Of a stretch of 64,000 nt of DNA, positions 1 to 22,670 are shown piece after piece. The DNA comes from Calonectris borealis. Taxonomy: Eukaryota. The stretch is from positions 680,127 to 744,126 of the forward strand of contig NW_027441456.1 of NCBI RefSeq assembly GCF_964195595.1, written 5' to 3'. The notes under the pieces were generated by a model that was not told where the DNA came from, searched no databases, and was given only the letters and a program-made list of their open reading frames with translations. Position numbers and translations under genes: made by a program. The first letter of the stretch is position 1; the number at the start of each line of letters is the position of its first letter.

Positions 1-51
1 ATTGGACAAGGGGCACAAGTCCTCAGCCTCTGGAGGCGAATCCTCTCAGGT

Positions 52-792
52 GTGAAGGAAAGGTATCCCTTGAAGGAAGATGTTATATGCCACCCAGGCA
101 AGTGGACCACTATGGAGAGAGGTATCCAGTACCTGAGGGCATTAGCCGTGCTGGAGGTGATTTATGATGACCTGAACAACGAGCAGTTATCCAAAGACCC
201 AGATGAAGTCAAATGCACCCGACCCATGTGGCGGAAGTTTGCACGGAGCGCACCAGCGTCACGTGCCAACTCATTGGCAGTAATGACTTGGAGAGATGGA
301 GAGGAACAAACAGTGGATGAACTGGCTGGCCAACTCCGGCAGTATGAAGAAAGTCTCTCTTCCTCCCTACGGGCCTGTGTCTCTGCTGTGGAGAAACTGT
401 CTCAGGAGGTCCAGCAACTCAAAGAGGATATGTCCTGCTCCCCACCTGCACGGGCCAGTGTCTCAGCCATTAGGAGCAAGCGTCCCTCTGCTCAAGAGAG
501 GACACATCGTGGGTACACACCCTGGGGCACCCTGTGCTTTTACCTGCGTGACCACGGAGAGGACATGAGGCAGTGGAATGGAAAATCTGCCTCAGCCTTA
601 CAGGCACGCGTACATGAGTTGCAAGGAAAAACCACCACAAAAGGGGGTTCTTCCAGGAAAACTGCTGCCCCAGTCTCCAGCAAGCAGTTCCCCAGACAGG
701 GTAGAAGGACTGATTCCACTTCCGACCTTAACAAAGGGACTTCTGATTCACACTTACAAGAAGTGGATAGTGAATATGATGACCAGGACTAG
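52..792 (+). CDS. gag: ERV-A gag (capsid-like C-terminal part; no CCHC zinc knuckle), intact 246-aa ORF ending in TAG
   Basis: The ORF 'MKERYPLKEDVICHPGKWTTMERGIQYLR...DSEYDDQD' lies directly upstream of the protease and is conserved in all three copies. Confidence 0.7.
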   Translation: MKERYPLKEDVICHPGKWTTMERGIQYLRALAVLEVIYDDLNNEQLSKDPDEVKCTRPMWRKFARSAPASRANSLAVMTWRDGEEQTVDELAGQLRQYEESLSSSLRACVSAVEKLSQEVQQLKEDMSCSPPARASVSAIRSKRPSAQERTHRGYTPWGTLCFYLRDHGEDMRQWNGKSASALQARVHELQGKTTTKGGSSRKTAAPVSSKQFPRQGRRTDSTSDLNKGTSDSHLQEVDSEYDDQD

Positions 793-813
793 AGGGGCCC
801 TGCCTCCAGCCAG

Positions 814-1203
814 GTGGAGGAAAGGGACAACCGGGTTTACTGGACTGTGTGGATTCGATGCCCTGGCACATCAGACCCACAGGAGTATAAGGCTCTCGTA
901 GACACCGGTGCACAGTGCACCCTGATGCCATCAGGCTATAAAGGGGCAGAACCCATTTGTATTTCTGGAGTGACAGGGGGATCCCAAGAGTTAACTGTGT
1001 TGGAGGCTGAAGTGAGCCTGACCGGGAAGGAGTGGCAGAAGCACCCCATTGTGACTGGCCCAGGGGCTCCATGCATCCTTGTCATAGACTACCTCAGGAG
1101 AGGGTATTTCAAGGATCCAAAAGTGTACCGGTGGGCTTTTGGTATAGCTGCCCTGGAGACGGAGGAAATCAAACAGCTGTCCACCTTGCCCGGTCTCTCG
1201 TAG
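814..1203 (+). CDS. pro: ERV-A aspartic protease; same frame as gag, separated from it by a single TAG at 790-792 (readthrough configuration)
   Basis: The sequence contains 'ALVDTGAQCTLMP'. The frame stays open from 793 in frame 1, identical to the gag frame. Confidence 0.85.
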   Translation: MEERDNRVYWTVWIRCPGTSDPQEYKALVDTGAQCTLMPSGYKGAEPICISGVTGGSQELTVLEAEVSLTGKEWQKHPIVTGPGAPCILVIDYLRRGYFKDPKVYRWAFGIAALETEEIKQLSTLPGLS

Positions 1204-1215
1204 GATCCTTCTGTT

Positions 1216-3030
1216 GTGGGGTTGTTGAAGGCCAAAGAACAAGTACCAATCGCTACCACAACAGTGCACCGGCGGCAACATCGCATCAACCGAGACTCTC
1301 TGATCCCCATCCATAAGCTGATTCATCGACTGGAGAGCCAAGGAGTGATCAGCAAGACTCGCTCACCCTTTAACAGTCCCATCTGGCCAGTGCGAAAGTC
1401 CGATGGAGAGTGGAGACTAACAGTAGACTACCGTGGCCTGAACGAAGTCACGCCGCCACTGAGTGCTGCCGTGCCGGACATGCTAGAACTTCAATACAAA
1501 CTGGAATCAAAGGCAGCCAAGTGGTACGCCACCATTGATATCGCTAATGCCTACTTCTCCATCCCTTTGGCGGCAGAGTGCAGGCCACAGTTTGCTTTCA
1601 CTTGGAGGGGCATCCAGTACACCTGGAACCGACTGCCCCGGGGGTGGAAACACAGCCCTACCATTTGCCATGGACTGATCCACACCGCACTGGAACAGGG
1701 TGAGGCTCCGGAACACCTGCAATACATTGATGACATCATTGTGTGGGGCAGCACAGCAGAAGAAGTTTTTGAGAAAGGGGAGAGAATAGTCCAAATCCTT
1801 CTGAAGGCCGGCTTTGCCATAAAACAAAGTAAGGTCAAGGGACCTGCACAGGAGATCCAGTTCTTAGGAATAAAATGGCAAGATGGACGTCATCAGATCC
1901 CAATGGATGTGATCAATAAAATAACAGCCATGTCCCCACCAACTAGCAGAAAGGAAACACAAGCTTTCTTAGGCGTGGTGGGATTTTGGAGAATGCATAT
2001 CCCAAATTACAGTCAGATCGTAAGCCCTCTCTATCACGTGACCCGGAAGAAGAACGATTTCAAATGGGGCCCTGAGCAACGACAAGCCTTTGAACAAATT
2101 AAACGGGAGATAGTTCAGGCAGTAGCCCTTGGGCCAGTCCGGGCAGGACAAGATGTAAAGAATGTGCTCTACACCGCAGCCGGGGAGAATGGTCCTACTT
2201 GGAGCCTCTGGCAGAAAGCACCAGGGGAGACTCGAGGTCGACCCTTAGGGTTCTGGAGTCGGGGATACAGAGGATCCGAGGCCCGCTATACTCCAACTGG
2301 GAAGGAGATATTGGCAGCATATGAAGGGGTTCGAGCTGCTTCGGAAGTGGTTGGTACCGAAGCACAGCTCCTCCTGGCACCCCGACTGCCGGTGCTGGGC
2401 TGGATGTTCAAAGGGAGGGTCCCCTCTACACATCATGCAACCGATGCTACGTGGAGTAAGTGGGTCGCACTGATCACACAACGGGCCCGAATAGGAAACC
2501 CCAGTCGCCCAGGAATCTTGGAGGTGATCACGAACTGGCCAGAAGGCAAAGATTTTGGAATATCCCCAGAGGAGGAGGTGATGCGTGCTGAAGAGGCCCC
2601 ACCGTATAACAAACTACCAGAAAATGAGAAGCAATATGCCCTGTTCACTGATGGGTCCTGTCGCCTTGTGGGAAAGCATCAGAGATGGAAGGCTGCGGTA
2701 TGGAGTCCTATACGCCAGGTCGCAGAAACTGCTGAAGGAGAAGGTGAATCGAGTCAGTTTGCAGAGGTGAAAGCCATCCAGCTGGCCTTGGACATTGCTG
2801 AACGAGAAAAATGGCCAGTACTTTATCTCTATACTGCCTCATGGATGGTGGCAAATGCCCTGTGGGGGTGGTTGCAGCAGTGGAAGCAGAACAACTGGCA
2901 GCGCAGAGGTAAACCCATCTGGGCTGCCGCGTTGTGGCAAGATATTGCTGCCCAGGTAGAGAACCTGGTTGTAAAAGTACGTCACGTAGATGCTCATGTA
3001 CCCAAGAGTCAGGCCACTGAAGAACATTAA
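1216..3030 (+). CDS. pol: ERV-A pol: reverse transcriptase + RNase H; same frame as pro after TAG 1201-1203; premature TAA at 3028 relative to copy 2
   Basis: RT motifs 'WRLTVDYRGLN' and 'LQYIDDIIVWG', and RNase H 'ALFTDGSC..TAEGEGESSQFAEVKAIQLAL'. Copy 2 reads through here with 'EHQNNQQVDQAAM'. Confidence 0.9.
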   Translation: MGLLKAKEQVPIATTTVHRRQHRINRDSLIPIHKLIHRLESQGVISKTRSPFNSPIWPVRKSDGEWRLTVDYRGLNEVTPPLSAAVPDMLELQYKLESKAAKWYATIDIANAYFSIPLAAECRPQFAFTWRGIQYTWNRLPRGWKHSPTICHGLIHTALEQGEAPEHLQYIDDIIVWGSTAEEVFEKGERIVQILLKAGFAIKQSKVKGPAQEIQFLGIKWQDGRHQIPMDVINKITAMSPPTSRKETQAFLGVVGFWRMHIPNYSQIVSPLYHVTRKKNDFKWGPEQRQAFEQIKREIVQAVALGPVRAGQDVKNVLYTAAGENGPTWSLWQKAPGETRGRPLGFWSRGYRGSEARYTPTGKEILAAYEGVRAASEVVGTEAQLLLAPRLPVLGWMFKGRVPSTHHATDATWSKWVALITQRARIGNPSRPGILEVITNWPEGKDFGISPEEEVMRAEEAPPYNKLPENEKQYALFTDGSCRLVGKHQRWKAAVWSPIRQVAETAEGEGESSQFAEVKAIQLALDIAEREKWPVLYLYTASWMVANALWGWLQQWKQNNWQRRGKPIWAAALWQDIAAQVENLVVKVRHVDAHVPKSQATEEH

Positions 3031-3042
3031 AACAACAAGGAG

Positions 3043-3678
3043 GTGGACCAGGCTGCTATGATCAAAGTGGCTCAGATAGATCTGGACTGGCAACATAAGG
3101 GTGAATTATTTATAGCTCGGTGGACCCACGACACTTCAGGCCATCAAGGAAGAGACGCAACATATAGATGGGCTCGTGATCGAGGGGTGCACTTGACCAT
3201 GGACACTATTGCACAGGTTATCCATGAATGTGAAACATGCGCTGCAATCAAGCAAGCCAAGCGAGTAAAGCCTCTTTGGTATGGAGGACAATGGTTGAAA
3301 TATAAATATGGGGAGGCTTGGCACATGATTATATCACACTCCCACAAACCCGACAAGGCAAGTGCTATGCTTCTCACACCTGTGGAAGTGACCACAGGAT
3401 GGCTGGAATCATATCCCGTGCCCCATGCCATCGCGTGGAACACCGTCCTGAGCCTTGAAAAGCAAGTCCTATGGCGACATGGCACCCCAGAAAGAATTGA
3501 GTCAGACAACGGGACTCACTTCCGAAACACCCTCATAGACACCTGGGCCAAAGAGCACGGCATTGAGGGGGTCTATCACATCCCCTACCACGCACCAGCC
3601 TCTGGGAAAATCGAACGATACAGCGGGCTGTTAAAGACAACACTGAGAGCAATGGGTGGTGGGACATTCAAGCATTAG
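3043..3678 (+). CDS. pol: ERV-A integrase (HHCC + catalytic core), C-terminus truncated by a stop relative to copy 3
   Basis: Zinc finger 'HDTSGHQGRDATYRW...HECETCAAIK' and core residues '..ESDNGTHF..'. Copy 3 extends to '..QGDLILGENSP'. Confidence 0.85.
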   Translation: MDQAAMIKVAQIDLDWQHKGELFIARWTHDTSGHQGRDATYRWARDRGVHLTMDTIAQVIHECETCAAIKQAKRVKPLWYGGQWLKYKYGEAWHMIISHSHKPDKASAMLLTPVEVTTGWLESYPVPHAIAWNTVLSLEKQVLWRHGTPERIESDNGTHFRNTLIDTWAKEHGIEGVYHIPYHAPASGKIERYSGLLKTTLRAMGGGTFKH

Positions 3679-4401
3679 GACACTCATTTAGCAAAGGCCA
3701 CCTGGTTAGTCAACACCAGGGGATCTTTCAATCGAGCTGGCCCTGCCCAATCAAAACCCTTACGCACTGTAGAGGGGGATAAAGTCCCTGTCGTGCATAA
3801 GAAATATGCTGGGGAAGACAGTCTGGGTTACTCCTGCCTCTGGCAAGGGAAAACCCATCCGTGGGCTTGCTTTTGCTCAAGGACCTGGGTGCGCTTGGTG
3901 GGTGATGCGAAAGGATGGGGAAGTCCGGTGTGTACTTCAAGGGGATTTGATTTTGGGTGAAAATAGCCCATGAACTGGATTGTATGATGTTAGTTACTAT
4001 ATAATACTGTATGTCATCACTTCTATGGTTACTCTATGCCATAGTAACAGTATTACAGTAAGAATCACCCAGGTTAATGTAGGATGAACTCTGATGAAAC
4101 CGAGCAAAGTGCAGCGATGATAGAACCGGACGAGCGCCCAGAACTGGCCTCAGCATGCAAGAGCCCAACACCACACACCATCTCTCCTGCCCTGCAAGAC
4201 TGTTACGACAGGTGGAACCCGAAGTTATGGACTAAATGAACTCAATGGACATTTTAGAGGGATGGCCCATGGATTAAGGTAATAATATCTCTGTGTGTGT
4301 ATATATCAAAAGGCAGGAAAAGTGGTGATGACTAATTGGAATGTATTGGAAAATGTGAGACCTGGGCATGATGTAGATGGTACAGAATAAGGGGTGGATA
4401 T

Positions 4402-4740
4402 TGTCCTGGTTCCAGCTGGGACAGAGTTAACCTTCTTCCCAGTAGCTTGGGGGTGTGCTGTGTTTTGGGTTCGGTGTGAAAGGAGCGTTGATGGCCCATT
4501 GATGCTTTGGCTGTTGCTGGGTGGTGCTTGCACTGGGGGGAGCACAGCCAGGGTGGTGGACCCAGCTGGCCAAGGGGGTATTCTATACCATGTGACATCA
4601 TGCTCAGTATAAAAACCAGGTGTGTGGGGGGGCTCGCCCCCCGTTCGTGACACGCGGTCGGCGAGCAGTTGCATTGTGCATCGCCTGCTTTGTATATTCT
4701 GTTACTGTTGTTGTTCTCATTGCTATTATTACTGTTCTAC
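4402..4740 (+). mobile_element. ERV-A 3' LTR (family LTR-A), ~340 bp; diverges from the 5' LTR after 'ttactgttctac' (truncated or chimeric U5 end)
   Basis: It starts 'tgtcctggttccagctgggacagagttaacc', has TATA 'tataaaaacc' at ~4607, and matches the 5' LTRs at 20135 and 42034 for ~340 bp. Confidence 0.85.
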
Positions 4741-5955
4741 GCCACGCAGACTCCCCCCGATTGGGACTCTTGTGAAGCACCAAGCTTGCTGAATGGGTTC
4801 CTTGTGCCACAGGCCCTGGGCTTATCAGAGATGCTGTGGGGACAAACATCCCTCCTCTTGCCAGGGGAGCTCTGTCCCCACAATTAGAGCCGCGTGGCTG
4901 CCTAGGGACAAGCACCCGCTTCATCGTGTCCCTCTGGACAGCCACATCCTGCTCAGAGACAATGCTGGCCTGGGTCGAGGACGAGGGCATTGAAGGGACA
5001 CTCCATGGGGACAGGGGCCTTTGGTGAGCTGTGGCCAAGTCCCGGGCAGGGGCAGGGCAGGAGCCAGAGCCTTGTTGGGGACGGGGTCACTGGGACCCAC
5101 TGTCTGGGGGCAACTCTGCAGAGTGGGAGCCGTGTTGTCTGGGAGGGCACAGTGGCCCCAGGCAGCGGCAGGGTGAGGGCCGGGGCAGGGGATATTCTGC
5201 TCTGTTCTCTGCTCTGGGGAGGCCATGTCTGGGACTGGACCAGTTTGGGGCCTGCAGTGCAAGGGAAATGGGGTGGGCTGGAGCTGGGCACTGTGACCAC
5301 CCCAGCACTTCCTCCAAGCCGAGCCCTTGTGTCCCAGTGCCCAACATTCACCAGTGCTCCCCATTGCCTCCACTGACTGAAGATCCCAGTCACCCAGCTG
5401 TCCCCATTGCCCATTCCCGAAGTTGTCCTCCTACGTCCCAGTGTTCCCAAATCCCAGGGTCCCAGGGGTCAGTCCCAGCCCCCCATTTACCCAAGGGGCT
5501 GGAGAAGGGCCAGAGACAATTCTACTTAGAAACCCTTGGTTTGAGGCTGGCGTCATCTCTGGGGGAGTCCCAGAGGGAAAGGCTGGCCTGGGAGGTGAGA
5601 GGCACTGCGAGATGGCAGTGCTGGGAGGTGAGGGGCACTGGGAGCTGGGGGGATCTAGCTTTGGGGGGCTGTTGGAGGATGGTTTCATGCTGGAGCAGTG
5701 GGTCATCACCATAGGGTTTCCGGCTGTCAGAGGCGCACTGCCCGTCCCCCTCACCACCCACAGATGCCTGGGCCCTTCCATGTGCAGCTGCCCCTTGCAG
5801 GAAGCTGGACTGATGCCGGGGAAGGTGGCTGGATCAGTGCCGGAGGCTGAGGCGACTCTGTGCCAGCGCTAGGCTTGCTGCCAGGGCTGGTGTCTCTGCC
5901 AAGCCTGGCTTTGCCCTGGGGGCTCTCGGGATGGGCAAGGAGGAGTCCTGGGAGG

Positions 5956-5962
5956 GATAAAT
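5956..5962 (+). promoter_or_regulatory. TATA-like box (GATAAAT) ~55 bp upstream of the candidate gene ATG, copy 1
   Basis: 'gggataaatcggcccc' at 5953-5968, followed by a 5'UTR-like run and the ATG at 6016. Confidence 0.4.
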
Positions 5963-6015
5963 CGGCCCCTCACCTTCTCCAGCTTCACCCAGCACTCACC
6001 ACACTACAGAGAAAG

Positions 6016-7754
6016 ATGAAGGTCGCAGCGCTCAGCGTGGCCCTGCTCTTCACCATCCTGCTCTGCACCCCGGAAGATGCTCAGGTGAGTCCCCACTGCC
6101 ATGGGGAGGGGCTCAAGGCTGGGGATGGGTCTTGGCTGCAGGATGTCAGCTCTCTTGCAGAATGAAATTGCAGTGGTGAGCCTGAAACCCCTTGACATGG
6201 CCTCTCCCTTTCCCAAGCAAGGAGCTCCTCCAGGCTCCCCTGCACCTCCAGCCCTGGGCAATGCAGCTCTCTCCCTCCCTCCCTCCATCTGTTCCCCCCT
6301 TCCCCCGCAATTAAACTTCCAGAGCTAGAGTTCCTCAGAGAGTGGTCAGACCTGTCCCTTCCCTAGGAGGGTCCACTGTAAAATCCTGTGAGGGCTCTTC
6401 TCTTGGTGCCCCCACATCTCTCCCTTTTGGCCATCCCCATCCCATCCTTTTGTCCCCCTCAGACATGCCCTCCCCACGATCTCCTCCATGTCCTATCTAG
6501 GGTCCCCAAATGCCCTCCCACTGATCGTTCCCAATGCCTTTCTTTCAGTCTTCCCCCTCAGTCCTTTGCCTTTCATCCTGTCCACTGTGGTAGTGTCCCC
6601 AGATCCCCTTCCTTGAAGTCCCACTCCCAAACATTCTCCCAGTCCCCTTCATTTTGTCCTCTGCAGTCCTCTTCCTTCTGCCCCCACCAACCACCTCGCT
6701 TGAACTCCCCCTATCTCCTCCACTTGAATTTCTTTACCCCTCACTTGCGTCCCACGCAGTCCTGTCCATTCAACGCCCCCAGCCCAGTCCCTTGGGGTCC
6801 GCTAATTCACCCCAGTGCCCTGTCTTTGGGTGCCTCCCGCCCCCATCAGCTTTGGAGACCCCGAATTCCCCACTCTATCCGTGTCTCCATCCCCACCCCT
6901 GGTCCCTGCATGAACAGGTATCCCCGGTGAAACTTGGAGGAATGGGGCTGGGGGGAGCAGAAGGTTTTTTCCCCCTCAGACCAAGGGGAAGCCATGGGCC
7001 TGGGGGGACTGGGGACACCTATGCCCTACCCACAGCCCCACCAAGGTCCAATCCAGACAACACCTTTCCTCTCCTTCCCTAGGCATTCTTCGAAGCAAGT
7101 GGAAGTTATAGCCGGCAAGTAAGTAGTGGGGTGGACTTGGAGGGCATCCAGTCTGGGGAATGGGAGGGCAATTTGGTCCTCCCATCCCTTGCTGGGACTG
7201 GGGACATCCCAGTGACCAGCGAGGTCTCACGGTCTCTCTACAGCTGAGCTACAGTTTCGGGCGAGTGAAGAGGGCTGAGGTAGGTACGATGAGTTCTGCT
7301 GGCTCCAGACCCTCCCGTTGCATGGCCACGACACTCCAGAGCATCCCAGCATAGGCCCCAATAGACCCCACTGCAACCCCAGAGAACACCCCTGCACCAC
7401 AGTGTTTTCCCAGGGAGGCCCCTTTCCCCAGGGCCCCCATTGCCTTCCCATCCATCCCATTACAACCCACTGCACCCCAGGATGTCCCAGTACACAGCCA
7501 CGCACCCAGGTGGGCCCCTTCCCCAGGACGCCCCCTGCTTTCTGTGCACCATCATGGAAACTCATGTACCCCATTTCTCCCTGGAGGCACCTTCCCCAAG
7601 GACCCCATTGCTTTCCCCTGCCTCCCACTCCACCCCAGTGTACCCAAGCATGTCCCCCCACCACTAACCCTCCCTTTCTCCCCAGCCCCTTCTGGCTGAC
7701 CGGGCGGCGGAGCTTGTGCGCCGTAGACGCGTGGCTGCAGCTGTTCATGGCTAG
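6016..7754 (+). CDS. Candidate small secreted peptide precursor gene, copy 1: 4 exons, all phase 0 (6016-6084, 7083-7118, 7244-7279, 7686-7754), 69 aa
   Basis: - Exon 1 encodes 'MKVAALSVALLFTILLCTPEDAQ' and is followed directly by GTGAGT.
- The 36-nt exons have AG acceptors after pyrimidine tracts and GTAAGT/GTAGGT donors.
- The product is 'MKVAALSVALLFTILLCTPEDAQAFFEASGSYSRQLSYSFGRVKRAEPLLADRAAELVRRRRVAAAVHG'.
- The splice phase is conserved in all three copies. Confidence 0.4.
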
Positions 7755-8351
7755 GTGAGCAGCATCAGCCCCGCAAAGGATCCTGGGCCCCAGGGGATCC
7801 CTGAGCCCTCTCGGGTGGGCAGAACTTGGGTATGGGAGAGGGAAACAGAGGGGACTGTCCATGATCCATGTCTCAGGGTGAGCTGGACAGAGCTGCCCCC
7901 ATGCCTTTCCTGGCACCCAGTGGGGCTCTACAGGCCCAGAGGGTCACCGTGCAGGCCAGGCAAGGGCTCTGGTGCCATACAGACCCCCAGGATCACCTTG
8001 AGGGGTGGGCAGGGCTCTGGGAGCTTTAGGGGCATCCTGGGCTAATGACACACTGGGCAAGGGCCTCTAGGTGCCATATGGACCTCAGGAGAGCCAAGTC
8101 CTGTCCTGGGTATACTGAGGGCTCCAATTCCTGTCTCCTTTCCCAGATCCCTGCAGAGAGAGATGGTGGGGGCGAGGCCCCTCTCATGTCTCAGCAGACA
8201 CTGGGGGTCTCATTTTGGGCTCTGTCTTTCAGGACTGGAACTGATGGTGACACCCCTGTCCCATCCCCCTCCAGCGGCATGAGGAGATGATCATCCCTGG
8301 ATGACCCCACCTGGTCCCCTGGGAGGCCTGGGCCATTTCCCTCTAATGATC

Positions 8352-8357
8352 AATAAA
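8352..8357 (+). terminator. Polyadenylation signal AATAAA, putative 3' end of candidate gene copy 1
   Basis: 'ctctaatgatcaataaaccccttcagcaaagc'; the same motif lies at the same unit position in copies 2 and 3. Confidence 0.45.
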
Positions 8358-9096
8358 CCCCTTCAGCAAAGCTACGCTCTGTGTGTCCGTCGGTGTCCTT
8401 GTCCATGTCCCTGTCCATGTCCCCTCTCCTCTGCCAGCGCCCAGATGCCTGGGTTGTTTCTGGCTGCACCACTGCCATGAGCAGAGTGGCTGAGGGACCC
8501 CGGATGCCAGGGGTGTTTCTGTAAAGGAGATCCCCTTCCCACCCACCGTGTGCCCCCAGATAAGGGCACATTAGGGCAAACTGGGGTGTCCCCCCATGAG
8601 GCTGGGAGAGGTAAGGGGCAGATGGTGCCAACCTCCCAGTGTTTTGGAGGCATAACGGGAAACAGGTTCTTACCGGGGCTCTAGTGAGCACCATCCCCCA
8701 AACAGCACAATTTGGTGTTGGGGCAGGAGAGGAGCGTGGACAGGCAGCCCGGATGCCTGGCTGCTCTGCCCCACTCTGGGAGGGGTGGTGGTTCCCTGCC
8801 CCATGGGTTCACCACTCCTGGGTTCACAGGAGATTTCTGAGCTCCATGTGCCCATGTGCCTTCCTGGACCTCCAGCCCACACCCTTCTCTGGGGTACCCC
8901 CCATCACAGGCCAGGAAGGCAGGTCATGGGCACCAGATGCTGCACAGACCTCTCCCTGTCCCCCGCCATGTGTGGCTCAGCTTTGCGGGACTTTGTGTTC
9001 ATTATCTCTTGGCTGTGGTTTTGTCTCTCCAGGCATGCACTGAATTACCACCGACTTTTACGTTAGGAATTTTTCCCTCGCCCCACTGCATGTGAT

Positions 9097-10937: not shown

Positions 10938-11286
10938 GCCATGGAATCACAGAACCATGGAATCACAGAATGGTTTGCATTGGAAGAGACCTTTAAAGAT
11001 CATCTAGTTGCAACCCCGCCCACAGCAGGGACATCTTCCACTAGCTCAGGTTGCTCAACGCCCCGTCCAACCTGACCTTGAACACTTCCAGGAATGGGGC
11101 ATCCACAACTTCTCTGGGCAACCTGTTCCAGTGTCTCAGCACCCTGATCATAAAAAATCTCTTCCTGATGTCAAATCTAAATCTTCCCTCTTATAGTTTA
11201 CAGCCATTACTCCTTGTCCTATCACTACAAGCCCTGGTAAAAAGTCTCTCTCCATCTTTCTTATAAGCCCCCTTTAGGTATTTGTC
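10938..11286 (-). mobile_element. CR1 LINE 3' portion (ORF2 C-terminus + 3'UTR), distal piece of a CR1 split by a nested LTR
   Basis: The reverse complement encodes '..YLKGGYKKDGERLFTRACSDRTRSNG..', and the antisense ORF '[27 protein letters not shown]' is typical of CR1 ends. The 3' end reads 'catggaatcacagaa'. Confidence 0.85.
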
Positions 11287-11863
11287 ATGGTGTAACCCCG
11301 ATGGGCAGCTAAGCACCATACAGCCATTCACTCACTCGCCCCACAATGGGACGGGGGAGAGAATCAGACGGGTAAAAGTGAGAAAACTAATGGGTTGAGA
11401 TATAGACATTTTAATATGCAAAGTAAAAGCTGCACACTTCATTCACTACTTCCCATTGGCAGGCAGGTGTTTAACCATCCCCATGCATAATAACTACTTG
11501 GGAAGACACATGCCGTATCTCTGAATGTGCTACCCTTTCTTCTTATCCCAGCTTTTATTTCTGAGCATGACATCGTATGGTATGGAATACCCCTTTGGTC
11601 ATTTGGGGTCAGCTGTCCCAGCTGTGTCCCCTCCCAAATTCTTGTGCATCCCCAGCCTACTCGCTGGCGGGGCAGTATGAGGAGCAGAAAAGGCCTTGAT
11701 GGTGTGCAAGCACTGTTCAGCAAGAAATAAAAAATCCCTCTGTTACCAACACTGTTTTCATTGCAAATCCAAAACACAAATCCCCACACTAGCGACTATG
11801 AAGAAATTTAACTCTGTCCCACTCAAATCCAGTACAGTATTGAAAGGCCATGATAAGGTGTCC
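11287..11863 (-). mobile_element. Solo LTR, family LTR-B (related to LTR-A), nested in a CR1 ORF2
   Basis: Its reverse complement aligns along its length with the + strand LTR at 13245-13840. It shares terminal motifs with LTR-A ('tgtactgg..tgggacagagttaa', '..atgtcatgctcag.ataaaagc', '..ctcaaccca..ttctctccccc'). Confidence 0.75.
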
Positions 11864-12530
11864 CCAGAGCCTTCTCTTCTCCGGGCTGAACAACCCCAAT
11901 TCTCTCAACCTTTCTTCATAGGAGAGGTATTCCAGCTCTCAGATCGTTTCCGTGGCCCTCCTCTGGACCCACTCCAACAGGTCCATGTCTTTCCTGTGCA
12001 GGGGGCTCCAGAGCTGGACACAGTGCTCCAGGGGGGGTCTCACAAGAGCAGAGTAGAGGGAGAGAATCACCTCCCTCGACCTGCTGGCCATGCTTCTTTT
12101 GATGCAGCCCAGGAAACGGTTGGCCTTCTGGGCTGCGAGCACACATTGCCGGCTCACGTCCAAGTTCTCATCCACCAGTATCCTCAAGTCCTTCTCGGCA
12201 GGGCTGCTCTCAATCCCTTCATCCCCCACACTGTACTGATAGTGAGGATTGCCCCAACCCAGGGGCACTTGGCCTTCTTGAACTTCATGAGGTTTGCATG
12301 GACCACCCCCCCAAGCCTGTTGAGGTCCCTCTGGAGGGCATCCCTTCCCTCCAGCCAATCAACTGCACCACTCAGCTTGGTGTCGTCTGCAATCTTGCTG
12401 AGGGTGCACTCAATCCCACTGTCTATGTCGTTGATGAAGATATAAAATAGTATTGGTCCCAGCACAGACCCATGATGGACATCATTCGTAACTGGCTTCC
12501 ACTTGGACATTGAGCCATTGACTGTAACAC
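11864..12530 (-). mobile_element. CR1 LINE ORF2 (RT C-terminal region), proximal piece of the CR1 split by LTR-B
   Basis: Minus-strand ORFs read '..LGPILFYIFINDIDSGIECTLSKIADDTKL..' and '..[48 protein letters not shown]'. The sequence continues from '..EKRRLWG' to '..YLKGGYKKDGE' across the LTR. Confidence 0.85.
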
Positions 12531-12539
12531 TGTTGAGAG

Positions 12540-13150
12540 ATGCTATTGGTAATGCAGATAGCGCTGCTGATGCCATAGCAGATGCAGATACCATTCCAGA
12601 TGCAGACACCATTGCAAAGGGGGTTGCAGATTCAAATACCACTGCAGAAACCTTTGCATATACCTTTGCAGATGCTCCTACCATTATTGATAATGTTGCC
12701 AATGCAGATACCAAAGCAAATACCTCTGCAGATCAGATGCCATTTCAGATGCTGATTCCATTGCAGCAACCGCTGCAGATACCATTGCTGATGCAAAGTC
12801 AGATGCAAGTACAATGGGAGAAGCAGATGCCATTGCAGATGCAGACATCACTGAAGATGCAGAGGCCATTGCAGATACTCTTACCATTACAAATGCCATT
12901 ACAGCTGCAGGTAGCACTGCAGATGTTGATGCCATTGCAAATGCCATTGCGGATGCAGATACCGTTGCAGATACTGATCCTATTGCAGATATGATAATCT
13001 TACACATATCAATGCAGATACAATTACCATTACAGATGCAATCACCAATACCATTACAGATCCCAATACCAGTACAGAGACAGCGGTACCATTACAGATA
13101 GTCAAACTGATACCGAGACCATCAGTGGTACAGATACCATTAGAGATAGG
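12540..13150. repeat. Degenerate 12-15-bp minisatellite (GCAGATGCCATT-like), ~610 bp; copy 2 at 34434-35044
   Basis: Repeats of 'attgcagatgcc/ attgcagatac' give low-complexity ORFs rich in A-D-A-I on the + strand and M-A-S-A on the - strand. Confidence 0.8.
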
Positions 13151-13244
13151 GTTGCTTATACTATTTCAGCTAGCGAGAGAATTACTCATGCACATACATT
13201 AACCAAATACATGTACACATACGGAAACCATTGCAAGCACATGT

Positions 13245-13840
13245 GCAGATACAGGCTCTGGATGGGATGGCGTTAACTTTCCCCATAGCAGCTCTCATAG
13301 TGCTGTGCTTTGGTTTTGTGTTTAGAATGGTGTTAATAACACAGCAATGTTTTGGCTGCTGCTGAGCAGTGCTCGCACAGCAGCAAGGCTGTCTCTCCAG
13401 CCACCTGCCTCAAAGGCCGGTAGGCTGGGGGTGGGCAAGAGGCTGGGAGGGGACACAGCCAGAACAGCTGACCCAAACTAACCAAAGGGATTTTCTGTAC
13501 CATATGACGTCATGCTCAGCATTAAAAGCTAAGAGAAAGGGGACGGGGGCATTCATTATTAAGGCATTTATCTACTGAAACAACCGCTATGCATACTGAG
13601 GCCCTGCTTCCCAGGAAGTGCTGGACGTGGCCTGCTGATGGGAAGTAGAGAATATTTTTTTTGTTTCCATTGCTTCCACATGCAGCCTTTGCTTTTCTTT
13701 ATTAAACTGCCTTTAGCTCAACCCACAAGTTTTCCATCTTAATTTCTCCCCCAGTCCTGCTGAGGAGGAGGAGTGATAGAGCGGCTTGGTGGGCACTTGG
13801 CAACCAGCCAAGGTCAACCCACCCCACTGATGAACAATAG
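13245..13840 (+). mobile_element. LTR, family LTR-B, + orientation (inverted relative to 11287-11863); possibly the 5' LTR of the adjacent rearranged ERV
   Basis: 'ggatgggatggcgttaactttcccc...accatatgacgtcatgctcagcattaaaagc...agctcaacccacaagttttcc..ttctcccccagtcc'. Confidence 0.7.
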
Positions 13841-13875
13841 CTAGTTTCTTTGGCAATCGTATAGTTTTTAACAGC

Positions 13876-14409
13876 TCAGTACTTACTCTCACTGGAAGTT
13901 ATAAAGCTACGCTGCTTCCATAACTGTCCACTGGTGTGGCATACTTCAAATGCATACCAAGAATCAGTACAAATATTTGCAGTCTTTTCTTTGGACAGCT
14001 GGAAAGTCTTTGTTAATGCAATCAATTCTGCTGCGTGTGCACTCAGCTTCAGACTGAGTGGTGAAGCCCTTACTACTTTATTTTCAGTAGTTTCTGAATA
14101 ACCTCTAACCGAGTTACCGCTCAGATAATGTGTGGACCCATCTACACGTAGTTCAAGACCTGGATGTGGAAATGGTACATCTGTTAAATATTTTAAAGTC
14201 TTTTTGTCTTCACAAGCTGTTACCACACCATTGTGATGTGGAGTTTCTTCCCCAGGAGGAGGAAGTAGACTAGCAGGATTCAGCATGTTACATTGCTTAA
14301 TTGTTATGTTTTCCACCGGTAAGAGAATCAGCTCATAATGATGTATTCGCTGTGGTGACAGTGCCTGGGTAAGGTGCTGTGACAGCAGCATTTCAATTTC
14401 CTTCCCCAA
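13876..14409 (-). pseudogene. Inverted fragment of a retroviral pol (RT connection + RNase H) from a family distinct from ERV-B
   Basis: The minus-strand ORF contains '..SAHAAELIALTKTFQLSKEKTANICTDSWYAFEV..', an RNase H signature. It shows no similarity to the ERV-B RNase H downstream. Confidence 0.7.
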
Positions 14410-16712
14410 AATTTGAGATCAAAAAACAAGTTATGCCAGGATGGCAACCGGGCCTGCCTGTCCAGCAAGTGAAATCCTATCAATGGAAAAATGACAATAG
14501 CCCATATATTTTAATTCCAGTTGGCCCTCAACAACAATTGGTAAAATTTCTAATAGATACAGGAGCACAAATTTCAATATTGACACAACAAGATGCCGAG
14601 AAGCTGGATGTACAACCTGGGGGACAAAGAGTTAAAATCACTGGAGTGAACGGAGCAAGTGTTATGTGCCAAACTGCAAAAGTTAATTTTTGGCTCCCGG
14701 GCAAGAAGCACATGTTGTCTACTCACTTTGCAGTTAAAGATCACAATGAGAATATTTTAGGTTTTGATGTTTTGAATGGCCGAACCTGGCATCTGCCAGA
14801 AGGCAGCCTGTGATCCTTTGCTTCAAATGTCGACCCTAACCCTGATACAAAGCGGAAGGTTTACAGCGCGTTTATGAATGCTGTAGCACTCCGTGCAGCC
14901 CCTGCACTCCCTGATTCAAAAACACCAACGTGCCGCAGTATCCCATTTCTGGTGCTGCACGAGCTGGAATCTCTGAAGTAATAGCAGATTTGCAAAAGTG
15001 GCACATTATCTCCAGAAACCACTCCCCCTATAATTCACCGGTTTGGCCAGTCGGAAAACCGGATGGGAGGTGGCATCTAACAATTGACTATCGGTGCTTA
15101 AATGCCAACACAGCTCCACTAACGGCGGCAGGACCCAATATTGCACCTTTAACAGCCACACTACAAGCAGCCACACCCCCATGGATGGCAGCGCTAGATA
15201 TAAAGGATATGTTCTTTATGGTTCCCTTGCAAGCAAAAGGATAAAGAGAAATTTGCTTTTACTTGGGAAAGTATACAATACCCCACAGGGGTATAAACGT
15301 TCACCCACCATTGCTCATGCTGCGCTTGCTGAACTTTACAAACCGTCTCACTTCCTCAGAATGTGAAACTGTACCAATATATAGATGATATTCTAATTGG
15401 AGGAGATTCCCCTGAAGAGGCAGGGGAAGCCGCAGCAACAGTGTGGCAAGCGCTACATAAAGCACAAGTTGAAATCCCACCTGAGAAATGTCAGGGACCA
15501 AGTAGAGAGGTAAAATTTTTAGGTACTTGGTGGATTGCAGGTGGTGCAACAATTCCACCAGACACCCTAAGTAAAATGGAACAATTGCAGATGCCCCAGT
15601 CGAGGAAAGAATTACAAGAGCTTATGGGTACTTCAGGGTGCTGGAGGAAACATGCACCTGGATTTTCTATCATTGCTTGGCCACTCTACTCACTTTTATG
15701 AAAGGGAAAGCCATGGAAATGGAACCAGAACATGAAGAGGCAGTGAAATCTCTACTACAGGGATTAAAACCACATCAGTCATTGGGACCAGTACAACCCC
15801 ACGACCCTATGGTAAGGATGGGGTTTTGCTGAACATGGTACTTATTGTAACCTGTTCCAAACTGGCCCTGATGGACTGAAAAGACCTTAGATGTTCAGCT
15901 CAACTGCATTGAAAGAGACAGAACAGAGGTATTCCAAGTGGGAAAAGGGACTGTTGTCTTTAGTCCGAGCAGTGAGACAAGCTGAGAAAGTACACCAGGA
16001 ACAACCTGTTCAAACCAGAGGTCCATTTAACTTACTAGAAGCAATCCTAAAGGGGACTGCTCCCCCAGAAGGAGTTGCACAAAACCCCACAGTCAGAAAA
16101 TGGTATGCCTACTTAACAGGAATTACAGAAGAAATGAATTTAACAGAAAGACATACTAAAGCTCCCAAGTTACAGATGCCTATAAACACAGACTCATTAG
16201 CGTTGCAACAACCCTTTAAACCCTCACCAATTTTAAATGCACCTCCCCTCACCGAGGGAACACCAACAGAAGACATTTGGTTTACTGATGCCTCAGCAAG
16301 AAGAATAGATGGCAAATGGCAATACAAGGCTGCTGCATTAAACATTAAACACAACACTGGCAAGCAAATTATAGAAGAAGGTGAAGGTAGTGCACAAATA
16401 GGAGAATTAAGGGCAGTTGTTCTAGCAGCACAAAACGGAGCCAAAGTTATCTATGTCGACTCCTACGCTGTGTGGGCAGGTGCCACACAATGGCTTTGTC
16501 AACGGGAAGCCCCGAACTGGGAAGTAAACAGATCTCCAGTTTGGAGAACTCAAGGTTGGCAACTATTATTAAATATAGCCGGGAAAACTCCATTCAAGAG
16601 GGGATGGGTGAAAGCTCACGCCAAAAATAATAAGCCAGCCACAAACTGGAATCAAAAGGTAGATGAATTGGCAAAGATTAGAAAGATTAAAAATAGGAGA
16701 TTCCTTAAATTC
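14380..16712 (+). mobile_element. ERV-B internal remnant: protease-RT-RNase H, frameshifted, no gag/IN/3' LTR; copy 2 at 36274-38607
   Basis: Protease 'LIDTGAQISILT' (14379-14813), RT 'WPVGKPDGRWHLTIDYRCLN' and 'YQYIDDILIGG' (14930-15701), and RNase H 'FTDASARRIDGKWQYKAAA...' (15891-16715). Confidence 0.85.
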
Positions 16713-16893
16713 TGAGTGGTGGAAGAGATTGCCCAGAGATGCTGTGGATGCCCTGGAAGCGATCAAGGTCAGGCTGGATGGGGCTTTGAGCAACCTGATC
16801 TAGTGGAAGATGTCCCTGCCCATGGCAGGGGGGTTGGACTAGGTGATCCTTAAAGGTCCCTTCCAAACCAAATCATTCTATGATTCTATGACC
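16712..16893 (+). mobile_element. CR1 LINE 3' end (last ~25 codons of ORF2 + 3'UTR) directly abutting the truncated ERV-B
   Basis: 'gtggtggaagagattgcccagagatgctgtggatgcc..ggttggactaggtgatccttaaaggtcccttccaaaccaaatcattctatgattctatga'. Confidence 0.85.
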
Positions 16894-17959
16894 TGGGGGC
16901 ATCTGTGGAGGCTGGTGGGGCATTTGTTTGGCCAACGGAAATGGCAGCAGATGCCCACATTTAGGACGTCAGAACCTGTCCCTGTCTGTTATTTTTTGGG
17001 CAGCCTGTGCAGGGATACCTCTGATCAAATGGTGTCATGTACCACAGCGAGACCTGAGTTTCTGTCTCTCTTTCCCATCAGCTGGGTTTACTAGATCCCC
17101 ATTGACTAGAATGACGGTGGTCTCATGAACATCCCCACATGGCCTGATCAAATTCAGGACAGTTACTTGATTTACTGGCAAAATACAGGCCTGTAATTCT
17201 ACGTGAGATGCCAAGGTTCACAAAAACCTACATGCGGCTGGCAGGTACAGCACAGGAAAGCCATCCACATTCAGAGCGAGAGTGTGTCAGACACCCCAGA
17301 CAGCACTGCAGACAGACTGGGTGCCTTTGTGCAAGCCACTGGTTGCTACCACTGCAGTGCCGCAAGGTCTGTCCCTTCTCTGTCCAGTAGATAGAGGGCA
17401 GTCCAGGAATACAAGGCGCGTCACGCTGGGGTCTCCACTCATGTGCCTACGCTCTCAAACTGCTGCTATTTTCTCTCCCCCATCCTTTACTCACCCACTT
17501 GAAAATACAGTCAAGGAACAGACCAACAATTTTCACAGTGTCCCTGTCAGCAGCACCTTGTCGCTCCTGGAGATGGGCTTCACCTCCACCAAAGACCCGC
17601 AGGGGCAGCAGAGACACCACTGACAGCAAACCCGTTTCTTTCCAGGGCTGCACTTCCCAGCCCTGTTTCTCTCTGTCCTTGGGGACAGCAGGGTTTGCTC
17701 ACTCTCTTGGTGTCCCATTTCATCTTTGTGTTTCCATCTGCCGACCACGCCGTCATGTCTCTGCTCTGAAGCAAAGCCTTTGCACGCTCCGGGACTTGGA
17801 CACGTCGTAGCAGGTTTCCCAAAAACAAGGCAGAATTGGCCTGGAGCCACGCCTGAGGTGCTGCAGCCCAAACGTGCCCTGATGCCCTCAGCCAGGGGCA
17901 CAGCCAGGATGATCTGGAGCCTGTGCTTTTTGACATCGATGGAGTAACTGCCACGGCAT

Positions 17960-19245
17960 GGTGGGACAAGTCACACAGCTTGGGGTGCTGCAGTGGATGG
18001 ATACAGGCTTTTCCGGAGAGACTGGCTGGAAGGATCCAGAGTGGGGTTCCTTCAAAGCGAAGAAGCTGCTTGGATGTATGGAGCTCCTCTATTGGGCGGG
18101 TGACAATTTGGGTGAGCCCTTGTGGGTGAGGGTCAGAGAAGAGGCCAGTAAACGTGGCATCGTGGTGTGACATAACCTGCAGTCAGGGTAAGGAAGCAGG
18201 CATAGTCTTTTCTAAGCCCACCAAGGAAGTCTCTGGATGTATAGGCCTGGGTCTCACTGGGGACTTTAATGACCCTGGCATTTTCTGGAAGGGGAACAAC
18301 AGCAGCATGCAAACAGCCCAGGCACTTTCTTGAAGTGTTTTGGGACAACTTCCTAGCACAGCTGCCAGATGGGCCAAAGAAGGTAATGCAAACCTGGATC
18401 TGATGCTTGCAAGCAAGGCAGAGCTGGCCAGGGATGTCAAGGTCGGTGTAAGCCTTGGCTGTTGCGACCCTGAAATAATGAGGTCCCAGCTCTCGAGGAG
18501 AGTGAGTAAGGAAAGTAGAAGACTGCAGGCGCTGGACATCAGAGGAGCAGACTTTGGCCTATTCTGGGGAGTTTTAGTGGGAATCTCATGGTCAGCAGCA
18601 CTGAAGGGCAGCAGAGCTCAGTACAGCTGGTCTTCAAGGACAGCATCCTCCAAGCACAGCAATGGTCCATATCAAAACTCAGCTGAAACTTGAAAATGAA
18701 TTCAAGGGCACCATAACGAGCTGTTACTCCTTCAGGAACAGTTCAAAAAGAAGCAACTATAACATGGGATCACTGCTAAATTTAGTAGGAGTAGGTATAG
18801 ACAGAGATGAGATATTCTGTGCACTCTTTATCTCAGTTTTCATCACAAGCTTTCCCAGACCTTTGTGCCTCAAGGCAGGACTCTGGAGGAGAACAGCAGT
18901 CAGCAGTGGATGGGAATCAAATCAGGGGCTACTGGAGCAAAGCCAAGCCTTACCAGTCCGTGGGGCGAGAGCGGCTGCATCCAAGGGTGCTGAAAAAGCC
19001 AGACAATGTCCCAGTGAGGCCACTCTGCATCATCTTTCAAAGGTTATCATCACAGGCCCACAGGGAGGAAGTGAGATTCTCTTTCTGGTCCTGGAATTGG
19101 CTGGCCAAACCATCCACAGCTGGTGCCTCCATGTCTGTCCAGCTCTTTAGCACCAGGGTGTTGGCATATGTTAAGCGGCTATCAATTGCCATCCACCTGG
19201 TTTGCATTTATCTCAAAGGCAGCCTTGACCTCTCCTAAGTCAATA
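17960..19245 (+). mobile_element. CR1-like LINE ORF2 fragment (endonuclease C-terminus to RT N-terminus), decayed; copy 2 at 39860-41145
   Basis: It contains '..LDLMLASKAELARDVKVGVSLGCCDPEI..LDIRGADFGLFWGVLVGISW..', matching the CR1 endonuclease end. It also contains '..SEATLHHLSKV..', matching the RT start. Confidence 0.65.
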
Positions 19246-20134
19246 TTCCTCAGTTATGACGGTGCATACAATTCATCAATTCTTTTCAAAATAACTTCAG
19301 AATACAAGTAACATCTCAGCTTATTTAAGTATGATAAATAATTCAACACTGCGTAACTTAGCTATCTAGTAAATAACACACAAAGCAGAAGCAGTCAAAA
19401 TGAAAATCTTCCAGGTGACTGCCTGCTCTTTGGGCAATTTCCAAAGCAAATATTCAAGTCAGTCACCTTAAATCTTTTCACACCCGATCCACAACAGAGC
19501 TCTTATTTATAGTTTGTGTCCCGTAAAGATATAACCATATCCATAACCCTTAAAAAGGACATATAATGTCAATGAAGAAGCTGAGCCATTTATCTCTGAT
19601 AATGAACCACTTATCAGTGTATTTTTATTTCTCTGAAGCCATGACAGGAGTCTCTATCATCATGGGAACAAAACCAGTGACACATTGGTTTCACTGAAAT
19701 TCAGGCAAACCTCCTACTGACTTCAAAACCTAAACCAGATCTTCACCACCAGCCTTTGATTCCCAGCTTGTGTTTCATAAAAATAAATTATCCTCACATC
19801 CTCATAGACAGAGGACTAAAATAAAGCACTATTTTACTTTCAGTAACGGTGATTGGGAAGCACAGCGTGGTAGCTTGAATTACTGTGGCACATAACAAAG
19901 AGAGGATGAGTTTACAGGGGAACGTGCCAGCCTTATGAAGTATTCATGGATCCGGTATGTGCTGCATCTCCTGATTGAGACCTTACTCACCCTGTCTCCT
20001 CCCAGTTCTAGCTCACACCACCAGTAAAAATGCTGGTCTTCTCAAGATGCAGAAATAAATAAATATCTGTCCTGTTATCTATCTCTTCTGATAGTTGTGG
20101 GCGTCTACCGGGAGGCAAAACAGGGGTGCCTGAG

Positions 20135-20634
20135 TGTCCTGGTTCCGGCTGGGACAGAGTTAACCTTCTTCCCAGTAGCTTGGCGGGTGTGCTGTGTTTT
20201 GGGTTTGGTGTGAAAGGAGCGCTGATGGCCCATTGATGCTTTGGCTGTTGCTGGGTGGTGCTTGCACTGGGGGGAGCACAGCCAGAGTGGTGGACCCAGC
20301 TGGCCAATGGGGTATTCTATACCATGTGACATCATGCTCAGTATAAAAACCAGGTGTGTGGGGGGGCTCGCCCCCTCGTTCGTGACACGTGGTTGGCGGT
20401 CGGTGAGCAGTTGCATTGTGCATCGCCTGCTTTGTATATTCTGTTATTGTTGTTGTTCTCAGTGTTATTCTTACTGTTCTACTTCGTTTTATTTCAAGTA
20501 TTAAACTGTTTTTATCTCAACCCAGGAGTTTTCCTACTTGTGCCCTCCCAATTCTCTCCCCCATCCCACTGGAGGACTGGGGGGGAGGTGAGCGAGTGGC
20601 TGCATGTGGTTTATTTGCTGACGACAGTCCTTTT
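20135..20634 (+). mobile_element. ERV-A 5' LTR (LTR-A, 500 bp) copy 2
   Basis: 'tgtcctggttccggctgggacagagttaacc...tataaaaacc...attaaactg...ctcaacccaggagttttcc...gacagtcctttt' lies immediately 5' of the PBS. Confidence 0.85.
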
Positions 20635-20652
20635 TGGCGCCCAACATGGGGC
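20635..20652 (+). other. Primer-binding site, tRNA-Lys1,2 type (17/18 match to TGGCGCCCAACGTGGGGC)
   Basis: 'tggcgcccaacatggggc' lies directly after the LTR end; the same sequence is at 42534-42551. Confidence 0.7.
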
Positions 20653-21714: not shown

Positions 21715-21909
21715 AAAGACTTCAGTTGTCGTCCAGGCGAGCACATTGTCACCTGGCTGCTCCGATGCTGGGATAACGGGGCCAGTAGCCTGGAATTAGA
21801 GGGTAGGGGAGCCAAGCAGCTGGGATCCCTTTCTAGGGAAGGGGGCATTGACAAAGCAATTGGACAAGGGGCACAAGTCCTCAGCCTCTGGAGGCGAATC
21901 CTCTCAGGT

Positions 21910-22649: not shown

Positions 22650-22670
22650 AGGGGCCCTGCCTCCAGCCAG

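Follow-up and report, generated by a model that had tools for sequence, protein, structure and literature searches.

The stretch of DNA analyzed here, called the window in the following, comprises 64,000 nucleotides (nt) of the Calonectris borealis genome (NCBI RefSeq assembly GCF_964195595.1, contig NW_027441456.1, positions 680,127 to 744,126 of the forward strand) and carries three intact copies of a small, unnamed gene which probably encodes a secreted, prohormone-like peptide precursor. An initial annotation, made from the sequence alone, had described this gene as a compact unit of four exons, and its coordinates for the exons, the splice sites, a TATA-like box and an AATAAA signal could all be confirmed in the sequence. 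The number of exons has to be revised to five, with a conserved untranslated last exon starting at 8233. The features of copy 1 are located as follows (window positions; a slash marks exon borders and cleavage points here and below):

5954-5963, + strand: TATA-like box GGGATAAATC, exact motif position
6016-6084, + strand: coding part of exon 1, predicted signal peptide MKVAALSVALLFTILLCTPEDAQ; 66 of 69 nt shared with the snowy owl
7083-7118, + strand: exon 2, 36 nt, phase 0-0, product AFFEASGSYSRQ; AG and GT sites kept in owl, pigeons and the plus-strand copy of the wagtail
7244-7279, + strand: exon 3, 36 nt, phase 0-0, product LSYSFGRVKRAE with the furin-type motif RVKR/AE
7686-7754, + strand: exon 4, 69 nt, product PLLADRAAELVRRRRVAAAVHG followed by a TAG stop; equal length and TAG/GTGAG in owl
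8233-~8375, + strand: exon 5, untranslated; acceptor aligns with pigeon, 93% identity to owl

The coding part of exon 1, as read from the sequence, starts with the ATG at 6016 and extends over 23 codons to the 3′ boundary CAG/GTGAGT. Within GGGATAAATC, the motif GATAAAT occupies positions 5956-5962, i.e., 54-60 nt 5′ of the ATG, and we infer a transcript start of copy 1 near 5985-5995; the position of an alternative splice acceptor used in pigeon corresponds to 5992/5993. Exons 2 (ccctag/GCA...CAA/gtaagt) and 3 (ctacag/CTG...GAG/gtaggt) are flanked by pyrimidine-rich AG acceptors and GTAAGT/GTAGGT donors, and exon 4 is bounded by ccccag/CCC...GGCTAG/gtgagc. The four coding segments of 69, 36, 36, and 69 nt each close on a codon boundary, with all introns in phase 0, and the spliced product has a length of 69 amino acids.

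The fifth exon was recognized by comparison with pigeon, for which the RefSeq models P0001 and P0003 end in ...PLFP followed by an asparagine and a stop that come from a separate exon. The acceptor of this pigeon exon (tttcag/AACTGA) aligns with the window at 8232/8233 (tttcag/GACTGG), and the window gene therefore has a fifth exon as well. It is untranslated in both the window and the owl and carries the AATAAA signal at 8352-8357, with a GT-rich element further downstream. The direct contact of the stop codon with a GT, on which the initial annotation had based a possible longer isoform, is explained by the fact that TAG, the final three nucleotides of exon 4, abuts the GTGAGC donor and is the last triplet before splicing to the untranslated exon 5. 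By established rules, a stop codon this near to the last exon junction should escape nonsense-mediated decay. Equivalents of exon 5 are found in copies 2 (30120-30262) and 3 (52010-52152).

The 2.7-kb gene region is present three times, at 5800-8500, 27670-30387 (97.1% identical), and 49567-52277 (95.6% identical). This self-BLAST result bears out the previously claimed three near-identical copies, all of which have intact exons, splice sites and stop codons. The further copies and the array containing them are:

27886-30262, + strand: copy 2, exons 27886-27954, 28959-28994, 29120-29155, 29562-29630, 30120-~30262
49783-52152, + strand: copy 3, exons 49783-49851, 50850-50885, 51011-51046, 51452-51520, 52010-~52152
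1-52684, no strand: tandem segmental duplication, unit of ~21.86 kb, head-to-tail, ~2.4 units in the window (self-BLAST)

Copy 2 has its AATAAA at 30239-30244 and its TATA-like box at 27824-27833, and its product ends with ...AAAVDV. For copy 3, the corresponding elements lie at 52129-52134 and 49721-49730, and the product shows V8M, SLD-FG, R53Q and a DV terminus. The differences between copies (V8M, SRQ-LS vs. SLD-FG, R53Q, HG vs. DV), including those already listed in the initial annotation, are real, but the compensating 1-bp indels it had invoked for exons 2 and 3 are not required, because these differences align gap-free as 3 + 4 substitutions. Of the 10 changes that separate copies 1 and 3 in exons 2-4, 8.5 are non-synonymous, and seven substitutions fall within 12 nt spanning the exon 2/3 junction of the mRNA (RQ/LS to LD/FG; 7110-7118 plus 7244-7249 vs. 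50877-50885 plus 51011-51016), with just three differing sites in the 125-nt intron between these exons. This junction cluster could be a selection hot spot or could stem from conversion by an unseen paralog. Self-BLAST further aligned 1-30823 with 21859-52684 (97.9%) and 1-8921 with 43758-52684 (96.2%), which places the right-hand end of the array at 52684. A 21.9-kb block which already contained an endogenous retrovirus (ERV) upstream of the gene was recently duplicated in tandem, and this segmental duplication gave rise to the three copies. The products of the window copies are absent from the protein collection, and an exact-sequence look-up returned no record for the unspliced open reading frame (ORF) of exon 1; the same look-up gave no record for P0001 and P0006.

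A search with the 69-amino acid product identified small "uncharacterized" proteins of the band-tailed pigeon and the snowy owl, the signal peptides of which nearly match that of the window gene. Profile searches with HMMER against 1.84 billion representative proteins and against a second set of 5.8 billion proteins yielded homologs from Neoaves only, namely from Passeriformes (Haemorhous, Acridotheres, Coccothraustes, Ammospiza, Motacilla, Zosterops, and Hirundo, as well as the suboscines Willisornis, Pitangus, and Myiozetetes), Columbiformes, Strigiformes, Psittaciformes (Ara), and Gruiformes (Grus). No protein from Galloanserae, palaeognaths or non-avian species was among the matches, a result that covers annotated proteins rather than genomes, and the gene family is apparently restricted to Neoaves. 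All homologs are unnamed predictions labeled "uncharacterized" or "hypothetical" or bear spurious automatic names, e.g., XP_071669462.1 (Patagioenas fasciata), KAM7020903.1 (Acridotheres tristis), and CAM9105608.1 (Bubo scandiacus). They share with the window gene the near-identical signal peptide, the exon joins, the RVKR motif and the ELxRQKRxAA tail and are considered true homologs, although their mature regions differ by 40-60% and the number of cassettes varies. Identical exon joins occur in annotated proteins of Patagioenas fasciata, Columba livia, Haemorhous mexicanus, and Acridotheres tristis, and spliced proteins with these joins are also annotated in macaw and others. In Haemorhous mexicanus, three loci (LOC132334783/803/821) with isoforms up to X21 (at least 21) are annotated, in which additional phase-0 exons are combined across many isoforms.

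That the gene cannot be placed in a known family, as stated initially, agrees with the search results: Pfam detected nothing at E ≤ 10 in the products of window, owl and pigeon, a PDB profile search returned only noise (E > 0.6), and neither of the two large profile searches led to a known family. Likewise, no publication on the gene family came up in literature searches by sequence, identifier or description. Three long repetitive profile matches (P0011, P0013, and P0016) were rejected as chance similarity, as only repeats of the type G(T/A)LL(D/E)A(S/T)G match; P0013, as read in its sequence, has no matching signal peptide. The family is best filed as an unnamed one of a known general kind, the prohormone-like, fast-evolving secreted peptide precursors.

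Within the family, conservation is strong in the predicted signal peptide, which follows the consensus MKVA(V/A)LSVALLF(T/S)ILLC, is encoded on a TATA-proximal phase-0 exon and is present in all three window copies, as initially claimed. Among 10 aligned members, columns M1, K2, L6, A9, L10, L11, F12, L15, L16, and C17 are invariant. The peptide consists of an n-region (MK), a hydrophobic core of 15 residues (residues 3-17; Kyte-Doolittle 9-mer mean of up to 3.1), and a polar c-region (TPEDAQ). The family alignment also revealed a short E-x-S/G-G motif in exon 2 and a tail motif, P..x..ELxR(Q/R)KRxAAxxxx, in the C-terminal exon, the window version of which is PLLADRAAELVRRRRVAAAVHG. In the mature part, only this tail motif and the C-terminal heptapeptide (VAAAVHG, LAASLDA, or QAAALYV) are semi-conserved, while the rest is hypervariable.

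The locus in the snowy owl is orthologous, with positions 4763-9033 of the window aligning to L001 8717-13001 at 80% identity. At the level of single bases, the TATA box, the ATG, each GT/AG site, the reading frame, and the TAG/GTGAG arrangement are kept, with owl exons 2, 3, and 4 measuring 36, 39, and 69 nt. Promoter and exon 1 are kept at the loci of snowy owl, two pigeons, white wagtail, macaw, and hawfinch, most of which share the GT/AG sites, the frame, and the terminal exon as well. Splice sites, frame and stop position are retained in Patagioenas, in two inverted Columba livia copies, and in one of two head-to-head Motacilla copies. The open exon 1 and the conserved splice sites at the homologous loci of owl, pigeons, and the wagtail plus-strand copy bear out the gene model of the initial annotation, as do the independently annotated proteins with identical exon joins. 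In the multi-species alignment, GGGATAAA is kept in owl, both pigeons and both wagtail copies, exons 1 and 5 are conserved in the same set, and GTGAAGAGGGCTG is invariant among window, owl, and pigeons. For exon 5, 74 of 150 alignment columns are invariant across window, owl, pigeons, and wagtail. An Rfam scan of window positions 4000-26000 gave zero matches, and folding of exon 5 revealed no convincing conserved RNA structure.

Local duplication of the gene or of its first exon was found in every species examined. In hawfinch (Coccothraustes, L008 10001 and 11227), promoter and exon 1 are tandemly duplicated, and head-to-head gene pairs occur in Columba livia (L005 2117, minus strand, and 9059, plus strand) and Motacilla (L006 8127, minus strand, and 10001, plus strand), with exons 2-4 of the Motacilla minus-strand copy no longer being recognizable. 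Pigeon copies are spread over at least five scaffolds. In Ara ararauna (L007 11530-13050), the module exon 2-intron-exon 3, which corresponds to window positions 7030-7332, is repeated five times with a period of ~305 bp; the exon-2-like donors of these repeats have GC instead of GT (GAG/GCAAGT), and each exon-3-like copy ends with KRGKRPE or LGQRPE. The pigeon isoforms P0004, P0009, and P0018 (Patagioenas fasciata L004 23246-25323) start in an exon derived from ERV pol (MVVKVHHGDAH...) and splice to an acceptor 23 nt 5′ of the ATG, which suggests an ERV-driven alternative transcription of the gene in pigeons.

Rates of change were compared between window and owl, with Fisher tests against the four introns together and non-synonymous (dN) and synonymous (dS) rates calculated according to Nei-Gojobori:

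Promoter plus 5′ untranslated region (UTR), exon 1, exon 5: 6.5% divergence from owl, Fisher p about 1e-6 vs. introns
Four introns together: 16.0% divergence from owl, reference
Exons 2-4: 28.4% divergence from owl, p = 4e-4 vs. introns

Promoter and 5′UTR (5877-6015) are 93% identical to owl, in comparison to 84% for the introns, and the first 200 nt of intron 1 are 88.5% identical; exon 2 alone diverges by 33%. For exon 1, dN is 0.02 and dS 0.12 (dN/dS 0.17), for exons 2-4 dN is 0.46 and dS 0.18 (dN/dS about 2.6). These values point to purifying selection on the 5′ and 3′ ends of the gene and to peptide-coding cassettes that change faster than neutral sequence, so that the overall pattern appears to be one of fixed ends around a diversifying middle.

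The convertase motif RVKR noted in the initial annotation is shared by the window, owl (in the form RKVKR), pigeons, myna (Acridotheres) and antbird (Willisornis) and thereby extends over the window species, Strigiformes, Columbiformes and both oscine and suboscine Passeriformes; the macaw repeats keep a basic site. The second proposed site, VRRRR, held only in part: it belongs to a family-wide R/Q-Q/R-K-R motif, which takes the forms RRRR (as in the window), RQKR, QQKR or RLKR in most members, but the owl lacks it.

An ERV lies upstream of the gene in each repeat unit, its most complete representative in the window being:

20122-26610, + strand: env-less ERV upstream of copy 2, recognized by its pair of long terminal repeats (LTRs) and Pfam domains

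Its 5′ LTR spans 20122-20616 and its truncated 3′ LTR 26260-26610, and the equivalents in the other units lie at 1-4740 (partial) and 42021-48507. The LTR pairs are 92.8-94.5% identical, with 3′ LTRs of 351-361 of at least 495 bp, and the element contains gag, pro, RT-RNaseH, and integrase (Pfam RVT_1, RNase_H, and rve). Its pol best matches, at 91% identity, are copies annotated in parrot, ibis, crane, and stork. The gene begins 1.28 kb downstream of the truncated 3′ LTR, i.e., outside the LTR pair, and has the same orientation as the ERV in every unit. In owl, macaw, and one rock-pigeon copy, the block equivalent to 19168-20134 directly adjoins the one from 4763 onwards without any ERV, and the ERV of the window replaces ~600 bp that are still present in owl. 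Because of this ERV-free arrangement, the ERV is regarded as a lineage-specific insertion beside a host gene. With differences of 5.5-7.2% between the LTRs and of 2-4% between the repeat units, the ERV insertion must be older than the tandem duplication. Pigeon copies contain a fragment of a related ERV that is joined to the host sequence at a different point, and an insertion shared orthologously with pigeons is ruled out by these differing junctions.

All these observations make it probable that the window contains three intact copies of an unnamed Neoaves gene for a prohormone-like secreted precursor, which would evolve under diversifying selection, has been multiplied by segmental duplication, and is not part of the ERV. 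In this respect, the earlier reading of the gene was essentially right. The structure of the gene, its pattern of conservation, the distribution of its family and the history of its duplication are documented by the sequences, whereas its translation and biological role are putative, and its secretion and processing are deduced from established knowledge of the secretory pathway and of proprotein convertases. According to the mechanism proposed here, a TATA-driven promoter would give rise to a five-exon mRNA, in which exon 1 would encode a cleavable signal peptide, exons 2 and 3, as symmetrical phase-0 cassettes of 36 nt, a variable pro-region up to RVKR, exon 4 a tail of ~22 residues with the second basic site (RRRR in the window, mostly RQKR in relatives) and a subsequent semi-conserved heptapeptide, and exon 5 the conserved 3′UTR. 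Upon translation, the precursor would enter the secretory pathway, and its signal peptide would most likely be removed after Ala22, leaving an N-terminal Gln; in several relatives, A-D-A/Q is found at this point. Convertases of the furin/PC type may then cut after RVKR and after RRRR/RQKR and free short peptides, and trimming by carboxypeptidase would result in a variable N-terminal piece, a middle peptide of ~13 residues (AEPLLADRAAELV), and the C-terminal heptapeptide VAAAVHG or VAAAVDV. The cassettes themselves would be duplicated or shuffled between species and alternatively spliced. Such a pattern may be characteristic of a ligand or effector that takes part in an evolutionary chase, e.g., in immunity, reproduction, or social signaling.

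Several points weigh against this interpretation. The codon-based test for dN > dS is borderline (Fisher p = 0.058), and relaxed constraint, or conversion by unseen paralogs, could account for part of the speed of exons 2-4. Owl (LPPKS) and one other member (RQKL) lack the second basic site, and the -3 residue of the proposed signal cleavage site is an atypical Glu here, in contrast to Ala in several relatives. AlphaFold2 predicted no fold but only generic helices of low confidence (predicted local distance difference test, pLDDT, of 64), and the peptide offers no strictly conserved bioactive core that would mark it as a defined receptor ligand. Moreover, the Calonectris borealis gene is known from its sequence only, and the proteins of its relatives are computational models.

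Among the other explanations, a non-coding or regulatory transcription unit would account for the fact that the best-conserved parts are the promoter/5′UTR and the untranslated exon 5, that the start of intron 1 is conserved too, and that the middle exons show no purifying selection. Selection would then keep the promoter and the first and last exon, with a short ORF that is untranslated or functionless. However, most of the changes that distinguish window, owl, and wagtail in exon 1 are either synonymous or, within the hydrophobic core, conservative, and the frame, phase 0, exon lengths in multiples of three and the stop position survive a divergence of 28%. RVKR is kept across orders, and neither an Rfam family nor a stable conserved RNA structure was found; all this renders a non-coding unit unlikely. 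An antimicrobial precursor of the frog-skin, myticalin or cathelicidin type, from which cleavage at RVKR would free a cationic C-terminal helix, is similarly improbable. Its combination of a conserved signal, a hypervariable peptide and a dibasic site is known from frog peptides and myticalins (PMC5577615), the gene evolves fast and exists in several copies, and some members are indeed cationic, such as P0027 (IPLKLLLRLKRLAVGLHA) with a net charge of +4. Across members, however, the net charge of the C-terminal peptide ranges from -4 (owl) to +4, the helical hydrophobic moment does not exceed that of shuffled controls in any member, and the basic run coincides with the likely cleavage site and forms no cationic face. 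Of the two likenesses initially proposed, the prohormone-like one is supported by the present data, but the antimicrobial one finds no support in charge or amphipathicity.

The gene could also be a highly diverged member of a named family, either a gene of the secretory calcium-binding phosphoprotein (SCPP) type or a CC-chemokine gene that kept its signal exon and lost its chemokine domain. The phase-0 introns throughout, the tiny exons and the untranslated last exon would be in line with this, as would the SSESxESSEW repeats which one flycatcher paralog carries behind the same signal peptide. The signal peptide presumably resembles those of CC-chemokines (MKVS..AL..LL...LC), a likeness which we take as a lead only. 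In both profile searches, however, no SCPP, chemokine or other named family came up, and Pfam found nothing (no IL8). The mature part contains no cysteine and hence no chemokine CC motif, the signal peptide is encoded in the TATA-proximal first exon and not in exon 2, the window copies have no SxE motif, and the one informative neighbor, in wagtail, is a CYP4F-like P450 and not the SPARCL1/SCPP cluster. On balance, we consider membership in such a family to be quite improbable. Lastly, the env-less provirus ~1.3 kb upstream of the gene in the same orientation in every unit raises the question of whether the gene belongs to the ERV or came with it, be it as a remnant of env, as an accessory gene or by transduction, and was amplified as part of a mobile element. 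The ERV pol fragments upstream of pigeon copies, the isoforms beginning in a pol-derived exon and the distribution over at least five scaffolds could be taken in the same sense. Against this, the LTR pair does not enclose the gene, the gene and its flanks are present without the ERV in owl, macaw and one rock-pigeon copy, the pigeon fragment meets the host sequence at a different point, and the gene has four introns and a conserved TATA promoter of its own. A retroviral origin therefore appears highly improbable.

The prohormone-like precursor gene favored here can be compared with known multigenic systems of secreted peptides. [quoted passage not shown] The window gene, found in birds and not in rodents, shows no sequence similarity to them in the profile searches. 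ESP genes encode a mature peptide of 5-15 kDa in one exon, whereas the window gene has 36-nt phase-0 cassettes, convertase sites and an untranslated terminal exon. Myticalins and frog-skin peptides, which are taxon-restricted and multigenic, combine a conserved signal, a hypervariable center and a conserved Lys/Arg convertase site (PMC5577615). The window gene differs from these in being neither consistently cationic nor amphipathic, in its five exons with mini-cassettes and in the lack of homology. Rat VCS/SMR1 (opiorphin-sialorphin) and SCPP genes have conserved ends, a hypervariable coding middle, prohormone-like basic sites and phase-0 introns, and their last exon is untranslated. The window gene agrees with the P/Q-rich subclass of SCPP genes in having only phase-0 introns and no coding sequence in its last exon; unlike SCPP genes, it has no untranslated exon 1, no SxE in exons 2-3, no link in profile searches and a CYP4F-like neighbor.

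As a more tentative idea, Neoaves might own a so far undescribed hypervariable secreted-peptide system, in which a fixed cassette holder consisting of promoter, signal exon, tail exon, and 3′UTR exon would frame symmetrical mini-exons whose duplication, exchange and alternative splicing, as exemplified by the house-finch isoforms and the five macaw modules, generate a species- and individual-specific repertoire, as a counterpart of the ESP/VCS or frog-skin peptides. In such a system, the peptides released by convertases would serve immunity or reproductive and social signaling, and the copy number would be tuned by segmental duplication. If this holds true, a widespread multi-copy family with a conserved export signal, a conserved furin site and positively selected cassettes, so far listed in databases only as "uncharacterized," would be added to the small secreted effector peptides of birds. 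To our knowledge, few of these are recognized, namely beta-defensins, cathelicidins, LEAP2, and NK-lysin, alongside the classical hormones. The family represents a candidate source of new avian signaling or defense peptides and a clean case of exon-cassette diversification combined with copy-number evolution. With respect to annotation, it illustrates that genes with 36-nt micro-exons inside retrovirus-rich tandem repeats can be real and are easily overlooked.

With regard to the genomic surroundings, the wagtail gene has a CYP4F-like cytochrome P450 9 kb downstream (L006 21237-21900), and ORFs resembling maestro heat-like repeat (MROH) proteins, their identity being judged by eye, lie downstream of the gene in band-tailed pigeon (L004 31900-34200, minus strand); neither of these neighbors is found within the window. 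Besides the gene and the ERV, the repeat unit holds CR1 fragments and pieces of a second ERV. With these elements also in the unit, the gene is no more than a possible reason for the amplification, as which the initial annotation had proposed it. The initial annotation had named the gene as the only non-transposon candidate of the unit, and an ORF and Pfam scan of the unit indeed detected no further one, although small genes could escape such a scan. The fragments of the second ERV lie within 10956-17000 (minus-strand RNase H at 13876-14409, plus-strand protease and RNase H at 14379-16715) and are bracketed by the inverted repeats 10956-11130/16720-16890 and 11550-11722/13360-13530. A CR1 fragment is located at ~11840-12520. 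Just past the array end at 52684, a solo LTR of the same ERV family (53385-53868), 92% identical to the 5′ LTR of the env-less ERV, is situated inside a CR1 element (53084-55927). Further downstream, at 56184-56302, a minisatellite with a 30-bp period (100% self-match at a 30-bp offset) reads as (GKGRE)n in two forward frames.

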